Shown here in pieces: positions 7,103 through 62,029 of a stretch of 64,000 bases of DNA; the stretch's first letter is position 1; each line of letters opens with the position of its first letter. The notes below the pieces were generated by a model. The model searched no databases and was not told the DNA's origin. It worked only from the letters and a program-made list of their open reading frames with translations. The DNA is taken from NCBI GenBank assembly GCA_951406725.2, contig OX597819.1, positions 62,620,001-62,684,000 of the forward strand, in the 5' to 3' direction. A program made the position numbers and the translations under genes. This DNA is from Octopus vulgaris (Eukaryota).

Positions 7103-7315
7103 TGCCCACGGGCATATGGCGTAGTGGTTAAGAGTACGGGCTACTAACCCCCAAGATTCTGAGTTCGATTCCAGGCAGTGACCTGAATAATGATAATAAC
7201 ATCGAAAAGTACTTTGGGAATGAGAACCCAGGTTCGAAATTTCCCCAAGACACCTGATAAAAGCTGGAGGGTATATCAGCCAAAATGTTGTGTTAACAAT
7301 GAAGAAGACGAGGAC
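7103..7315 (+). mobile_element. tRNA-head/hammerhead Penelope pLTR-like module, 3'-truncated copy with decayed core
   Basis: TGCCCACGGGCATATGGCGTAGTGGTTAAG..GTTCGATTCC..CCTGATAAAAGCTGG..CAGCCAAAATGTTG; matches 10011-10343. Confidence 0.85.
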
Positions 7316-7720
7316 GTAGTAAGTAGCTTGCTTATCAACCACATGGTTCCGTGTTCAGTCCCACTGCGTGGCACCTTGGGCAAGTATCTTCTACTATAAC
7401 CTCGGGCCGACAAAAAGTTTGTGAGTGGATTACGTCGACGGAAACTGAAAGAAGCCCGTCGTATATATATATATATATATATATATATGTAGGTATGTGT
7501 ATATGTTTGGGTGTTTGTGTTTGTCCCCCCACCAAATCACTTGACAGCCGATGCTGGCGTGTTTACGTCCCCATAACTTAGCGGTTTGGCAAAAAAGAAC
7601 GATACAATAAGTACTAGGCTTACAAAGAATAAGTGCTGGGGTCGATTTACTCGACTAAAGGTAGTGCTCCAGCATGGCCACAGTCAAATGACTGAAACAA
7701 GTAAAAGAGTAAAAGAGAAT
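7316..7720 (+). mobile_element. tRNA-derived SINE family A (internal (TA)n, CR1-like tail)
   Basis: GTAAGTAGCTTGCTTA..GTTCAGTCCCACTGCGTGGCACCTTGGGCAAGT..CAGCATGGCCACAGTCAAATGACTGAAAC; many copies in this window. Confidence 0.88.
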
Positions 7721-8227
7721 GCCAATAATTTAAATATTATAGGTCAAACGAAAGGGCGTTATGGAAAAATGACACATGATATGAAATTAACGAAACTATA
7801 TTAAAAACAAAAGATTCCACATAGAATATTCTCTGTAGCTTCTTCATAATCTTCTGGAGTGTCTCCCTTCGTGATATATTTACGGTACACGTGATATATT
7901 TACGGTACGCAGTTTAAGATAAGGAATTATTGAAATTAGTAATTTTTACCCCATTTTACCCTATTTTTAGACGTCATCTTTTTGAAACTTGAAAATTATC
8001 AAATTAGACATTAGATTGAAGAAAAACTGACTTGGAATCCAACAGAGAGAAGAATATTGATTGTCGAACGCCAAAAATTATCCAGATATTTTATTAGTTG
8101 TCTTAATTACAATTAGGTTAAAATTTAGTATAAATTTCTTGATAAGTAACTATCACTTGACTGTGTTTCGAACTCTCTCAACTTCAACAACAACTATGCT
8201 GACCAATTTTTACGTCTAAATATAATG

Positions 8228-8537
8228 ATTTTTTTTGTTTGTTCCTTCTCGAGCCGCGTCGGGCTCATAAGGGCCGGTTTCCCGGTTTCCTTGGCGTATA
8301 GGTTCCCCACCTGGATAGCATGCCGGTCCGTCACAGGTGAGCTGCAAGATGCAGGGGGAAAGAGTTAGAGAAAGTTGTGGCGAAAGAGTCAGCAAAAGTT
8401 CGCCATTACCTTCTGTCAGAGCCGCGTTGAGCTTAGGTGTTTCGCTCATAAACACACACATTGCCCGGTCTGAGATTCGAACCCGCGATCCCTCGACCGC
8501 GAGTCCAATGCTCTAACCACTAGGCTATGTACCGCCA
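8228..8537 (-). mobile_element. tRNA-derived SINE family D with TSD
   Basis: Minus-strand TAGCCTAGTGGTTAGAGC..GGTTCGAATC; direct repeat CTAAATATAATG at 8216-8227 and 8538-8549. Confidence 0.85.
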
Positions 8538-8689
8538 CTAAATATAATGTAGCAATGCAAAATGATGATGATGCGGTACTTGGAACATAATGGCTTCAAA
8601 CAAGCTGAAAGAAAATAACAAGAAATCAAAATTTACTAATTTTACCCCACTTACAAATTTCCCCACTATCCCCATGTATTGTATATATA

Positions 8690-9500: not shown

Positions 9501-9827
9501 CGTATTATTGAATTCCTTGTTGTAAAAGCGCGTGGCCGAGTGGTAAAAAAATTGCATTCGTGATCGTAAGATTGTGGTTTCGATTCCAGGACCGGGAGAT
9601 GCGTTGTATTACTGAGCAAAACCCTAAATTTCGCTTTGCTCTAATTCACTGAGCTGTACACGAGTTCCAGCAAATGTCTAGAAAGTTAATCCTGCGACGG
9701 ACAGATATCCCGCTTAGGGGAGGGAGTGTTCTAATCTCAATCATTTGAAAACATCATGGAAACTTTTTTTTGCATTATTTACATTATTTACATTTGACGG
9801 ATGTTTGTCCTCATCTTGTTTGTTATT

Positions 9828-9873
9828 AACACAACGTTTCGGCTGATATACCCTCCAGCCTTCTTCAGGTGTC
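9828..9873 (-). ncRNA. Minimal type-I hammerhead ribozyme motif
   Basis: GACAC-CTGAAGA-A-GGCTG(10-nt loop)CAGCC-GAAA-CG-TT-GTGTT: conserved core, stem I, stem II and loopless palindromic stem III. Confidence 0.8.
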
Positions 9874-9925
9874 TTGGGGAAATTTCGAACTTTGGTTCTC
9901 ATTCCTAAGGTATTTTTCGATGTTG

Positions 9926-9993
<68 letters not shown>

Positions 9994-10113
9994 GTTATTG
10001 TTCAGGTCTCTGCCCACGGGCATATGGCGTAGTGGTTAAGAGCGCGGACTACTAACCCCAAGATTCCGAGTTCGATTCCAAGCAGTTACCTGAACAATAA
10101 CAACAATAACAAC

Positions 10114-10154
<41 letters not shown>

Positions 10155-10206
10155 TAACATCGAAAAATACCTTAGGAATAAGAGCCCAAGTTCGAAATTT
10201 CCCCAA

Positions 10207-10252
10207 GATACCTGAAGAAAGCTGGAGGGTACATCAGCTGAAACGTTGTGTT
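10207..10252 (+). ncRNA. Minimal type-I hammerhead ribozyme motif
   Basis: GATAC-CTGAAGA-A-AGCTG(loop)CAGCT-GAAA-CG-TT-GTGTT. Confidence 0.78.
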
Positions 10253-11044
10253 AACAACAAACAAGATGAGGATAAATATCCGTCAAATGTAAATAATGTA
10301 AATAAGGTACATAATTCCTCATCTCTTAAATATAGAACTGTACCATGGAAACTGGTTTAAGATGAGAACTTACGAGACCTAATATTCATGACTTGTGAAT
10401 GAAAATAAACACGACCCGCTATATTTGACAATTCTTTGTCAAATATGGCGGGTCTTGTTTGTAATATTATTGCGTTTTTCATTGTCCTTTTCCCTTCAAA
10501 TCCACTGTACTTTCTGAATGTGCTGGATATTTTTGTTCAGTATTTTCTATCATAATTCTGGAATTACCGTCGCTATTTTATAACAACTCCTGTAAAATTA
10601 TAAAGTTATGTAATTAAGTTACCTTGTTTTCCCGAAGCCTCGAAACCTGCATGATTTTATGTTGATATGATTAGCTTAAGCCTATCTGTAACTTTCAAAC
10701 TATCTTCTATCTTATTAGTAAAATGTTTTGATGCATTTTTTTTTACCATTTTCGTTGTGATGTGCGTTAACTTGAGTTAGTTCAGTAAGGCTTCTCATTC
10801 AATTTTAAGTTGATTATTTTCTTTCTGTATTTTTTTCTTATTTGGTCTGGTTGATCATACTCTGAATCTATCAAAATCGAATCCGATTTCTTTCAATACT
10901 TTTACACTTACTGAATAAATTACACAATTCAGTCTGTTGCTATTTGGTTAGATTGTCTCTCTGAACACAACGATTTCTCACACACATATGTACATTCTTC
11001 CTTGGAATTGTTTTCCTATATGTGACTTAGGCATGAATTTCTTT

Positions 11045-11289
11045 CAGTTCTATATTTACGGGCATATGGCGTAGTGGTTAAGAGCGCGGGCTACTAACAC
11101 CAAGATTCCGAGTTCGATTCCAAGGAGTGACCTTAACAATAATAATAATAACATCGAAAAATACCTTCGGAATAAGAACTCAGGTTCGAAATTTCCCCAA
11201 GACACCTGAAGAATGCTGGAGGGTATATCAGTCGAAACGTTGTGTTAACAACAAACAAGCTGAGGACAAATATCCGTTGAATGTAAATG
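11045..11289 (+). mobile_element. tRNA/hammerhead pLTR-like module with 14-nt inverted tail at its 5' end
   Basis: CAGTTCTATATTTA (inverted tail, 11045-11058) precedes the head; hammerhead ~11201-11246; TSD ATGAATTTCTTT at 11033-11044 and 11290-11301. Confidence 0.88.
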
Positions 11290-11322
11290 ATGAATTTCTT
11301 TGTTTTATGTTTTTTCGATTGT

Positions 11323-11590
11323 GAAGGCGCGTGGTTTACTGGCGAAGGTATTGCATTAAGTTCGCACTCATGATCGCAAGATTATAGTTTCGATTCGTGG
11401 ACTGGGCGATGCGCGTTGTTCTAGAACAAATCACTTCATTTCTCGTTAATCCAATTCACTTAGCTGGCAAAAATGAGTATACCTGAGATGGAACTGTGTT
11501 CCGTCCAGAGCGGCGACGGAGGAGGATATTTACGTCACAGAATCCGTGAAGCTAGCCTCATGAGCCTCTGGTTCGGGAAGGACTTTTTAC
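11323..11590 (+). mobile_element. Degenerate tRNA-SINE with V-domain-like core
   Basis: GAAGGCGCGTGG head, GTTTCGATTC, CCTGAGATGGAACTG..CGTCCAG; tail similar to family D. Confidence 0.6.
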
Positions 11591-13890: not shown

Positions 13891-14145
13891 GAGCCGACTT
13901 ATATATTTCCCTTTAAACCATTAACTGCCAATTCTTTAAAATTCATATTTTTGGCGCTCTGACAGGTGTCTTAAGAGTTAAAATTATATATAGTATCCAC
14001 ATTTTCTTCGTATGTGAATTATTATGGAAATTATAAATTTTTCGAAAAGTCACAAATGGAGATCGCTGAAAAAAAAATCATATTTATCCTTTTCTGTTCT
14101 ATTGCAGTAATGAATATTTTAGCTTTTTGAAACTATAGTATCAGC

Positions 14146-14613
14146 ATACAAAAGATATGCAGCCCATATGACATCAGGACAGTATCCAAGAGTAATACAA
14201 CACTTCGCAAATATCTCCTTCGAGTAAAAAACACCAATAGAAGAAGATATTATCGAAGACCGCGTACATTCCATCCCATGCAACTCTGTTAGGTTATACA
14301 AAGGCGAAACATGCCGCCCCTAAAAATAAGGGTAGATTTATTGATAAATCGGGGATAGCTGATCATGTATGCAAAAATGGAGACCACCTCCCCCTGTGGG
14401 CTTAAGTTAAAATAATAGACCGAGAACACCACTGGAAAATACGAAAACTAAAAGCAGCACGTATGCTGGGACACAACAACCTCCTAAGCAGACCGAGTGC
14501 AAATATAAATAGCATATGGGAACCGGTATTAGGGAAGGATAGGAAAATATTAGATTTTATAAGCCCTAAAATTCACTCCATAATTGCCCACGGGCATATG
14601 GCGTAGTGGTTAA
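14146..14613 (+). mobile_element. Penelope-like element 3' end: GIY-YIG endonuclease relic fused to the tRNA-like head
   Basis: IQKICSPYDIRTVSKSNTTLRKYLLRVK/TPIEED..VHSIPCNSVRLYKGETCRP/..DKSGIADHVCKNGDHLPLWA*VKIIDREHHWKIRKLKAARMLGHNNLLSRPS..SIWEPVL, followed at 14585 by TGCCCACGGGCATATGGCGTAGTGGTTAA. Confidence 0.88.
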
Positions 14614-14619
14614 TGAAAT

Positions 14620-15115
14620 TAATGTTCATCACTATTTATCAAAATACTCGGCAAGCAATCTCCTTTCACTCCTTATGCATTGGTCTATACTCAGCCACCA
14701 TTCTTTCTTTTCATATACAGTCTGTTTACGTTTGCTTTAGGGTGTAGCGCTCTATGCAGCATCATCAACTTTCTCGTCCTTCTATCCAGTGTTGATATTT
14801 CCTCCTTAGTCCATTTAAGGATGGACGCACTATATCTGACCACTGCAACTGCCCAGATATTCATTGCGGTAATCAAATTTTTGGCTTTCAGGTTGGGTTT
14901 CAGCACCATCTTCACCCTTTTTTGAAACGCCTCGCTGACTTTGACTTTCATTTCTCTGTGTAGAATGTCATCCAGCTCCCAAATCCCTGAATATCTATAC
15001 CCACTACCGTCGGGTTCACCCATGGTCTCTCCTGATGGTAACCGCGATCCTCTGCAGGATGCTTTCTTTCCTCTTTTCATATTAATCCCAAATTCCATAC
15101 CGATGTCTCTATCAC

Positions 15116-15483: not shown

Positions 15484-16180
15484 TTTTTTCCTTCTTTCTT
15501 CAAATATTCTTCCGTTTCTCGCCGAGTATTTTCCGTACACCTAGGGCAGAGAAGCACATTATATGCATTCCCAGATTACACACGCAAATTCACAGATAAA
15601 AAATATGTATTTAAAAAAGTAATAAATAAATAAATTCATGGATGGATGTTGTTTTCACAGCGATAATGCTCTTCTCAGTACATGAGTCGTTCCAATTAAC
15701 ACGATTTTTCGCACTTCATGTAGGGATGGTAAGCCTGGTATCATTTCCAAATTAAGGCGGCGAGCTGGCAGAAACGTTAGCACGCCGGGTGAAATGCGTA
15801 GCCGTATTTCGTCTGCCGTTAGGTCCTGGGTTCAAATTCCGCCGAGGTCCACTTTGCCTTTCATCCATTCGGGATCGATTAAAAAAGTACCAGTCACGCA
15901 CTGGGGTCGAATTAACCAACTTAATCCGTTTGTCTGTCCTTGTTTATCCTCTCTGTGTTTAGCCCCTTGTGGGTAGTAAAGAAATAGAAATAGGTATCAT
16001 TTCCAAATAGGGTTAAGTGCCTTGTTTTTAATCATTCCTAGAGTTCCTACAATCACTGGTACTGTAGTCGCCTTGAGATGCCACATTTTTCAATTTCTAT
16101 TAGCAGGTCTTTATATTTACTGACCTTGTCAAATTCTTTCGCCGCTATATTGTGATCGCAAGGATGTCAATTAATAAACA
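15484..16180 (-). mobile_element. Dong/R4-type LINE 3' end (restriction-like endonuclease C-terminus + 3' UTR) between (TAA)n tracts
   Basis: PCDHNIAAKEFDKVSKYKDLLIEIEKMWHLKATTVPVIVGTLGMIK..YLEMIPGLPSLHEVRKIVLIGTTHVLRRALSL*; (TAA)n on both sides. Confidence 0.88.
15753..15992 (+). mobile_element. SINE family B, full length, nested in the Dong element
   Basis: 16-bp TSD GGTATCATTTCCAAAT at 15737-15752 and 15993-16008. Confidence 0.92.
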
Positions 16181-16276: not shown

Positions 16277-16452
16277 AAAGGCGGTGAGCTGGCAGAATCG
16301 TTTGCACGTCAGATAAAAAATGCTTAGGAACATTTCGTCCGTCTTAAAATACTTAAATCAAATAGCGCTGAGGTCGACTTTACCTTTCATCCTTTCTGGG
16401 TCGATAAAATAAGTACAACTTGAACACTGACCTTATGCCAAAATTTGAAACC
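16277..16452 (+). mobile_element. SINE family B, degenerate
   Basis: AAGGCGGTGAGCTGGCAGAATCG head and core. Confidence 0.75.
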
Positions 16453-19507: not shown

Positions 19508-19814
19508 TTATTTACATTATTTACATTATTTGCATTCGACGGATATTTGTCCTCATCTTGTTACTTGTTGACACAACGTTTCGACTGATATACCCTCCAG
19601 CCTTCATCAGGTGTCATGGGGAAATTTCGAACCTGGGTTCTCATTCCTAAGGTGTTTTTCGATGTTGTTGTTATTATTATACAGGTCACTGCCTGGAATC
19701 GAACTTGGAATCTTGGGGTTAGTAGCCCATGCTCTTAACCACTATGCCATATGTCTGTGAGATGTAAATAATGTAAATATGTACATAATTCCACTTCTCT
19801 TAAATATAGAACTG
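19508..19814 (-). mobile_element. tRNA/hammerhead pLTR-like module with inverted tail
   Basis: Minus-strand body ~19508-19760, then plus-strand tail to AGAACTG (19814); TSD TAGAAACARTACT at 19495-19507 and 19815-19827. Confidence 0.88.
19570..19615 (-). ncRNA. Minimal type-I hammerhead ribozyme motif
   Basis: GACAC-CTGATGA-A-GGCTG..CAGTC-GAAA-CG-TT-GTGTC (perfect stem I). Confidence 0.82.
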
Positions 19815-20282
19815 TAGAAACAGTACTGTACTGTATATTTTTAGAAAATGCTGAAAGTTTCGGCGACACCGTAGGGCTTAAAATAAATTCAAAATTTTAC
19901 ACACAAATGCAAAACAATACCACACACTCGCTTCCCGGGTTTCGTTTTCCATACAGTATGTGCGATTCTTTGTTTACTCCTCAACAATACACTATCTATT
20001 TTCTTTTAATATATTTTAATTAATGTGTTATACAGTGTAATTCTGTGCTCTATATTTATTTATCTATTTATTAATTTTCAGGGCTGAAAATGCTTATTTC
20101 CCCACAGAAATATTTGAAATCTAAGAGAACATAAATACCTATCGGCCGTAGTAACCCGCGATATACTGCGGAGTCCGCGATATAAATTTACACATATTAG
20201 CCAGAAAAATTCCGCGTTGCATTGAGGGTGTGGTAAGATAATTGCGATATGGCGAGTGATCACTGTATAATGTTTACTGCGA

Positions 20283-59739: not shown

Positions 59740-59785
59740 CAGTTCTATATTTAAGAGATAAGGAATCATGTACATTATTTACATT
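59740..59785 (-). mobile_element. Isolated tail of the tRNA/hammerhead module
   Basis: CAGTTCTATATTTAAGAGATAAGGAATCATGTACATTATTTACATT. Confidence 0.8.
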
Positions 59786-59799
59786 CTTCTTCTTCTTCT

Positions 59800-60956: not shown

Positions 60957-61622
60957 ATGGGTTCGTTTCCCTGGCGAGGTATCACGATATACCCTTGAAC
61001 AAGGTGTTTTATTTCACATTGCTGCAAACTACTTAGTTGAAATAAGTACCAGCAGAGCCTTGTCGCGTTCTTTCCGCCCCAAAAGCTATCATATGTTGGT
61101 TGTTCCTTTGAGTCAAGTGCACGAGGACCGACAGGGTGCCTATAACTACTTAGTTTTGGTCGATGGATTGCGACCAATCTGGAATACGGTCTTATTTTTG
61201 TTTATTTATTTATTACCTTTGTTTTAGCTTTGTTCAAGTTTTATTAATTGATTGTGGATCTATAATCGACTTGGTAGCGACTGAGTTTCCTTGAGTGCAA
61301 TATTGTATTGTTGACTGGTCCACTATTTTGGTTAGGTTTATCCAATGCTATGTGTTTAATGTTTCGAAGGTGGTATGTAGGGAATCCGGCACTATCGACC
61401 AGTTCTTCCTTTAAAGCCTCCCTTAATGCTCAAGTTTGGTATATGACCTTCTAGAACTTTCTATACATAAATTGAAGCATATCACTCGATATGCCATCCA
61501 AGGTTGTAGAGACATAAAACTTTAAGACGTTCCCATATACAGTTAAAACGGTTAGTGGGTTGTATGCAAACTATAATTTCAGTGTGGATAATCTAAAAAC
61601 TTTACTATAATTATATACAATA

Positions 61623-61821
61623 CAGTTCTATATTTAAGAGATGAGGAATTATGTACATTATTTACATTATTTACATTTGACGGATATTTGTCCTTATCCT
61701 TTTTTGTTGTTAACACAATGTTTCGGCTGATATACTCTCCAGCCTTCATCAGGTATCTTGGGGAAATTTCGCACCTGGGTTCTCATTCCTAAGGTATTTT
61801 TCGATGTTGTTGTTGTTGTTG

Positions 61822-61883
<62 letters not shown>

Positions 61884-61893
61884 GTTATTGTTA

Positions 61894-61954
<61 letters not shown>

Positions 61955-62029
61955 GATCACTGCCTGGAATCGAACTCGGAATCTTGGGGTTAGTAGCCCG
62001 CGCTCTTAACCACTATGCCATATGCCCGT
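61623..62029 (-). mobile_element. tRNA/hammerhead pLTR-like module, full length with tail
   Basis: Head to AGAACTG tail; hammerhead at 61712-61757 (CTGATGA..GAAA, with CG>CA in stem III). Confidence 0.9.

Follow-up and report, generated by a model that had tools for sequence, protein, structure and literature searches.

We find that a short SINE-like repeat of Octopus vulgaris is the whole pseudo-LTR of a PLE, made up of a tRNA-like head, (AAT)n, the start of the ORF, a minimal hammerhead and a 37-nt tail. From the window, by which we mean the complete stretch of 64,000 nucleotides analysed, and from contigs of public runs, the family's ORF is shown to end 29 nt ahead of the head, which is followed in turn by (AAT)n, the ORF start that holds the hammerhead, and the tail. 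The reading that we prefer, and regard as probable, is that of a Penelope/Poseidon-type family whose pseudo-LTR opens with an A/B-box tRNA-like segment, which likely arrived by a SINE insertion behind the stop codon of a master element and likely starts short Pol III RNAs that the family's own reverse transcriptase would copy back.

The free copies of the unit, 200–410 bp in length, share one plan of head, (AAT)n, body, AATGT repeats and extension. The complete unit lies at 10011..10342 on the plus strand and consists of a 7-nt leader, the head (from 10018), (AAT)n, an ORF-start frame from 10178, the hammerhead, AATGT repeats and the 37-nt tail. An inverted, 5'-truncated arm of the same insertion is found at 9775..10008 on the minus strand; it is tail-less and has an ATG frame at 9902–9774, and the insertion as a whole is flanked by a 10-bp target duplication (9755–9764 and 10344–10353). 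A second insertion, at 11045..11292 (plus), pairs an inverted 13-nt tail tip (11045–11057) with a tail-less head-started unit (11058–11292) and has a 12-bp duplication at 11033–11044 and 11290–11301. The third, at 19508..19816 (minus), joins a head-started unit (19759 to 19508, minus) to an inverted, tail-bearing arm that extends to 19816 on the plus strand, with a 14-bp duplication containing one mismatch. Three of the five free copies are thus two-armed, with duplications of 10, 12 and 14 bp and the tail confined to one arm. Both other copies are head-started. The one at 7103..7303 (plus) has a 7-nt leader and a mutated hammerhead core and has lost its 3' end to a different repeat with a (TA)n core (7304–7700); the one at 61621..62029 (minus) has a long (AAT)n, the hammerhead and a full tail, with no inverted arm or duplication seen. 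A tail-only fragment lies at 59740..59788 (minus).

A PLE pseudo-LTR comprises the UTR and ORF start, a tail of 30–40 bp and an inverted, 5'-truncated partner, and the unit matches all of these. Two-armed insertions with the tail on one arm are described for PLEs in the available text of PMC8557442 and PMC11167929. A LINE was rejected as the mobiliser because the unit's 3' part and insertion structure are PLE-type, and a retrozyme-type tandem was rejected with none of the five free copies in tandem in the window. The tail end (10337/10342) is joined straight to the head start at 11060 in one or two contigs per DNA run, which hints at rare head-to-tail dimers.

The 3' ends cluster, with unrelated sequence beyond them, at 10342 (442 and 396 contigs), at 10305 and at 10300; these positions are 165, 128 and 123 nt past the ATG. 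The ATG frame begins 34 nt upstream of the ribozyme core and meets no stop before the unit ends. It aligns to the N-terminus of P0156, a full-length protein of the PLE type discussed below, at residues 21–55 (BLASTP, E 0.003); of 5000 shuffles, 0 and 2 scored as high. We also found one chimeric Octopus sinensis model with the ORF-start peptide, P0152, whose 368 residues begin with the unit's ATG frame (∼37 residues) and continue as a cysteine-rich, receptor-like protein; this could be an exonised pseudo-LTR serving as a first exon, or an annotation artefact.

The hammerhead is a minimal type I motif at 10207..10252 (plus), with a helix I of 5 bp, the core at 10212, a helix II of 5–6 bp, a palindromic helix III and a predicted cut after 10247. 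A descriptor composed after the motif had been seen picks out four sites in the window, all in this PLE family, compared with 0.04 per null window; four of six long copies pass it, and the other two have core or helix changes. Folding of the hammerhead regions was no better than that of shuffles (z −1.9 to +0.75), and Rfam gave no match at the gathering score anywhere in the window, returning chance matches only at E 10 and not calling the hammerhead. The minimal type I hammerhead is the type described in animal PLEs, as far as the available part of PMC4209133 goes, and a putative ribozyme of this kind in the pseudo-LTR fits PLE membership. At four of 17 distant PLE loci (L004, L009, L012 and L017), from freshwater and other metagenomes, a hammerhead-core motif occurs 7–40 nt past the endonuclease end.

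The head appears tRNA-like but is a poor tRNA, its boxes being intact and its cloverleaf degenerate. A and B boxes are present in all five whole heads, 33–34 nt apart; 1.9 A+B sites at that spacing are expected per null window, and two were found besides the heads. ARAGORN at default settings gave no hits in the window. At a 90% threshold it called a single site in the 64 kb, the head at 19684–19748 in the 19508..19816 copy; below 90% its calls are noise (24 hits at 80%). Rfam called no tRNA for the head even at E 10, and phage records gave no significant match to it (two records, E 2 and 8). At the 17 distant PLE loci (25–40% identity, several of them mutually close) there was no A+B box pair, tRNA hit or unit match within up to 600 nt downstream, a weak sign that the head may be lineage-specific. 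The microsatellite-rich window also holds other tRNA-headed SINE-like repeats, at 8220–8540 (minus; A box 8527), 9525–9600, 11325–11400, 15755–15990 and 16280–16440; they are of at least three kinds and are unrelated to the PLE family by blastn.

The free copies start 7, 7, 2, 2 and 3 nt upstream of the head's +1, so that all five starts fall within an 8-nt span, with a probability of ∼2 × 10^−3 or less if starts were spread evenly, even over 60 nt. They lie on or beside purines that follow pyrimidines, 9–14 nt from the A box, which is the distance expected for Pol III. Sense-strand runs of four T are absent from eight unit copies and fragments, which is not significant by itself (∼1.5 expected in 800 nt, by a hand calculation). 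The two boxes of the head and the clustering of the 5' ends make its use by Pol III plausible.

The strongest competing explanation makes the head passive: the family would be transcribed by Pol II from an internal promoter, short copies would begin at the head through a Pol II start or a stall of the reverse transcriptase, and the 'SINEs' would be solo pseudo-LTRs. Pol III RNAs are translated poorly, and the coding RNA requires translation. Summed contig depth also climbs toward the 3' end, the head standing at 3.8 and 3.4 times and the 3' end at 14 and 7 times the ORF end in two runs, and ordinary 5' truncation must therefore be common. An internal TATA-less promoter is known for Drosophila Penelope (PMC2377424, available text). 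Against a passive head, the starts lie 2–7 nt outside the tRNA-like part, on or beside purines after pyrimidines and at Pol III distance from the A box, and boxes that are intact in all five whole heads, with a degenerate cloverleaf, suit a promoter more than a stall structure. We consider a passive head unlikely and keep Pol III initiation at the head as the preferred reading.

The coding sequence that precedes the head in this window, at 14146..14562 (plus), is the 3' end of a Penelope/Poseidon-type ORF, comprising the RT–EN linker and the GIY-YIG endonuclease, and is 5'-truncated and frameshifted, as judged by tblastn and contigs. The RT+EN protein P0022, which bears RVT_1, matches 14137–14531 in three frames (tblastn, E 3.6e-22), collinear with its residues 392–533; the relic has three frames and an internal stop and is hence not one ORF. 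Its last frame finds 197 proteins at E ≤0.001 among 1.84 billion (phmmer), and the closest named ones are Octopus vulgaris and Octopus sinensis gene models of 85–89% identity. Pfam gave no match for the four relic frames. In P0156, the full-length cluster mate of P0022, the C-terminal region groups with GIY-YIG Atlas clusters (0.97; family on 17–32% of members). By eye, the CxC, EH and H columns of the endonuclease are conserved in an alignment of relatives that includes P0167 and partly decayed in the relic, and the linker, collinear with that of P0022, has no added cysteine cluster, unlike the Zn-finger linker of Neptune and Nematis. A CCHH endonuclease without the extra Zn-finger linker corresponds to placement in Penelope/Poseidon in the portion of PMC8557442 available, and the C-terminal GIY-YIG, motif columns and linker place the relic, on sequence grounds, with the Penelope/Poseidon EN+ PLEs.

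The relic belongs to a large family and is 5'-truncated. The contigs that supply the evidence on the PLE side come from four DNA runs with three organism labels; they cover it at very high summed depth, and loose ends upstream of 14146 read on into the PLE linker in 63, 61, 56 and 51 contigs of the four runs. Depth at the ORF end, head and 3' end is roughly 1–2 × 10^4, 7 × 10^4 and 1.4–2.5 × 10^5 times that of the unique flank, values that give orders of magnitude only and not copy number. Among 13 candidates for longer relatives of the relic, none qualified, and no full-length family ORF was found. The suggestion in the earlier note that this locus is the likely autonomous parent therefore does not hold, the copy being a frameshifted, 5'-truncated relic. 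A sister PLE family of ∼60% identity occurs in long ENA contigs (P0003, P0004, P0007, P0019 and P0170–P0175); it includes two partial tandems, P0019, in which the endonuclease end is followed by an N-terminal segment of the ORF, and P0007, in which a hammerhead-tail peptide leads on to the endonuclease.

The earlier note had read the endonuclease ORF in frame into the head. In this copy the frame from 14340 does read ...SIWEPVLGKDRKILDFISPKIHSIIAHGHMA*, with its TAG at 14604–14606 inside the A box (14599–14609), but this is not a trait of the family. The copy has a run of four T at 14555..14558 (plus), its only four-T run, where contig depth and loose ends give three T in most family copies: one letter is omitted at 14555 in 57–60% of the depth in all four DNA runs, and the three-T form also appears in loose ends at 14556 and 14557. 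The first stop when 14555 is skipped is a TAA at 14560..14562 (plus), nine residues past the WEPVL motif, and P0167, an independent protein 89% identical to P0001, terminates at the same residue count. Because the three-T majority frame stops at 14560–14562, the family ORF ends 29 nt upstream of the head and does not itself enter it. The TAG within the A box came about by chance in this copy, and we rejected the read-through peptide as a genuine C-terminus since it needs an extra T that most copies lack.

Between the family stop and the tRNA-like +1 is a 29-nt spacer (14563..14591, plus), whose last seven nucleotides, TGCCCAC, open two of the free copies. As had been proposed, this leader occurs at 7103 and 10011 as it does at 14585, with the head then beginning at 7110, 10018 and 14592, and positions 14585–14613 are identical to the starts of both free copies (29/29, E ∼2e-9). 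The three further heads, at 11060, 19756 (minus) and 62027 (minus), have only two or three upstream letters in common. At the locus itself the head is cut off after its first 22 nt (14592..14613, plus; A box 14599–14609), and contigs carry the remainder. It is truncated by an unrelated repeat relic at 14614..15110 (minus), recognised from its ORF and a separate depth level, with an RT-like C-terminal peptide; searches of Pfam, Atlas and PDB gave this relic no name, and it resembles an R4/Dong-type LINE RT fragment, which is how we presumptively class it.

The junction between the ORF end and the head is real and recurs across the family. On the PLE side, 141, 127, 104 and 125 contigs of the four DNA runs have loose ends behind 14613 that carry on into the remainder of the head. 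As the head is reduced to 22 nt at this locus, no listed contig has 31 letters on each side of the junction; four long records extend into the head, by 12 and 16 letters in X11, by 22 in X2 and by 32 in X9. An X9 loose-end consensus behind 14557 (24 contigs, median 16 letters) diverges from the window after ∼22 letters. For the head side we used contigs of two DNA runs on 10158–11330, together with two runs guessed to be RNA that were not used as evidence. By eye, the plurality consensus upstream of 11058 agrees with 14560–14589 at 22 of 30 positions in X2 (140 contigs) and 25 of 30 in X11 (128 contigs). When no PLE-joined contigs are included, none of 2000 simulations reaches 17/25; a joined share of ∼0.15–0.25, about one-fifth, fits. 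The head-to-ORF-end depth ratios of 3.8 and 3.4 are in line with this share, and within the 64-kb window one of six heads is PLE-joined. At another locus, the gene model P0001 has the reverse complement of the unit tail followed by this endonuclease, a link that does not involve the head, and in P0007 a homologous tail peptide is joined to the sister endonuclease. The earlier proposal that the tRNA-derived segment is an integral part of the PLE's pseudo-LTR is thus borne out by recurrence of the junction from both sides and by P0001, which joins tail and endonuclease. The junction pattern had no matches in JGI metagenomes.

The recurring junction could also reflect target preference and not ancestry, if a separate SINE took the PLE 3' end and repeatedly homed to one site behind the PLE stop. 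Anole Poseidon cuts at an ATT motif that lies downstream of the point where ORF and pLTR meet (PMC11167929, available text), an ATT is present at 14583–14585, and free heads exceed joined heads by ∼3–4 to 1. However, depth shows no step at the junction: it is 794k, 225k, 373k and 960k summed over 14562–14582 in the four runs and 761k, 175k, 297k and 965k over 14583–14603, bearing in mind that free heads with the 7-nt leader can inflate depth at 14585–14613 and that summed depth is not copy number. There is also no alternative UTR among the 24 loose ends listed of ∼1150. The seven upstream letters are common to free copies and the PLE side, and the PLE would be left with no pseudo-LTR if the unit did not provide the ORF start and the hammerhead. 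Recurrent homing is, in our judgement, quite improbable. A single chance insertion of a SINE into one dead PLE fragment at 14146–14613, which had been the stated alternative and which one joined copy in a window from a genome dense in both kinds of repeat might suggest, is refuted almost beyond doubt by the junction's recurrence in contigs of four runs on the PLE side and two on the head side, and by P0001, which links tail and endonuclease elsewhere.

The mechanism that we propose for an integral head would begin with a simple tRNA–(AAT)n SINE entering the short UTR of an active master immediately after the stop codon. Within the 64-kb window we saw no tRNA–(AAT)n SINE that stood free of the PLE part, and we infer the direction, SINE into PLE. 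The captured head would then become a Pol III promoter fronting every pseudo-LTR, ∼110 nt upstream of the ATG. By analogy with anole Poseidon, reverse transcription would begin inside the RNA, ∼123–128 and 165 nt past the ATG. Any RNA starting at the head and passing the tail would be a complete template; since it would hold the internal priming sites, the PLE protein would make a copy from the tail to the start site. The cDNA would end at the 5' end of the RNA, so that the clustered 5' ends would mark a transcription start whose spacing from the A box suits Pol III. Tail-less copies would be poor templates, and many short copies would therefore probably be dead-end products of pseudo-LTRs and not a self-renewing SINE line. 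A further step, which we think has only a small chance of being correct, is that the head serves the entire family as its promoter, with Pol III starting at the upstream pseudo-LTR to make the full coding RNA as well as the short templates. This would be an autonomous element running on a captured tRNA promoter, and one dominant octopus 'SINE' would be its terminal repeat in solo form, and with that the first case of a SINE-like family linked to a Penelope enzyme.

The family resembles the Penelope/Poseidon PLEs, such as Poseidon of Anolis carolinensis (PMC11167929) and Penelope of Drosophila virilis (PMC2377424), in its C-terminal GIY-YIG, its short UTR (∼140 nt; the anole template has 126 nt), a pseudo-LTR that includes the ORF start and the hammerhead, two 3' ends ∼37 nt apart and inverted, 5'-truncated arms. 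In the part of the anole paper available, the ORF begins inside the ribozyme, reverse transcription sets in at an internal position of the RNA, 111–118 nt into the ORF, and the tail corresponds to the sequence between two such start sites. In contrast to these elements as described there, about half of the octopus UTR is a tRNA-like stretch bearing both the A and the B box, which is exactly where many copies begin; the words 'tRNA' and 'SINE' are absent from the available text of PMC11167929.

The unit is also like a tRNA SINE (SINEBase, PMC3531059, available text) in being shorter than 700 bp, with an A/B-box tRNA-like head, simple repeats, very high copy number and a 3' part shared with an autonomous partner. 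It differs in that the partner is a PLE and not a LINE, the head lies within the partner, and the two-armed insertions have a PLE tail. By its sequence, the unit would agree with SINEBase in size and promoter boxes, with weak tRNA likeness, and would depart from it in the LINE partner; we call it SINE-like in its working and do not file it as a SINE.

The nearest known case is that of SM-alpha and Sj-alpha of Schistosoma, SINE-like and hammerhead-bearing, in which a Pol III-type promoter is likewise followed by a hammerhead in a short repeat (review PMC6765202, in part). There, tandem monomers are freed by a canonical ribozyme and no coding parent is named, whereas the octopus unit has a minimal PLE-type ribozyme, is contiguous with a GIY-YIG ORF and is in tandem in none of the five free copies. 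The TRIMp3 elements Helenus, Ajax and Cassandra similarly have a small-RNA promoter in the terminal repeat of a retroelement, which the available text of PMC10886601 proposes to stem from a SINE insertion. They are described there as non-autonomous LTR elements with PBS and PPT, whose autonomous partners are expected to be without the Pol III repeat. In the octopus, by contrast, the coding family itself bears the head, the arms are single or inverted, and duplications are 10–14 bp instead of 4–5 bp. Chlamys MRC1 (PMC8557442) and animal retrozymes (PMC7229834) are, like the unit, short non-coding sequences that share PLE 3' ends or hammerheads; unlike the unit, they have no tRNA-derived head in the descriptions available from these papers.

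We found neither a PLE with a tRNA-derived repeat nor a PLE-partnered SINE in the literature, judged mostly by titles and the beginnings of abstracts. The PLE–tRNA unit is not described in the available text of the cephalopod repeat papers PMC13282606, PMC8967140 and PMC6962438, nor in that of the mollusc SINE paper PMC4758252, SINEBase, PMC6765202 and PMC7229834. The novelty of the unit is thus judged from the text of papers. Since reverse transcription in PLEs is initiated within the RNA, the 5' ends of the short copies would preserve the start site in the genome, and promoter use would therefore be directly testable from assemblies and 5'-end data.

Octopus tRNA-derived SINE families named OK, OR1 and OR2 were reportedly described by Ohshima and Okada in 1994, and the short unit may well be one of them. 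SINEs are defined as dependants of LINEs (PMC3531059), and non-autonomous LTR elements are known to have tRNA promoters in their terminal repeats (PMC10886601). If our reading is true, a coding Penelope family with a tRNA-like promoter in its own repeat would represent a third way in which SINE-like elements arise, and some of what makes up the large SINE fraction of octopus would be misclassified Penelope sequence.
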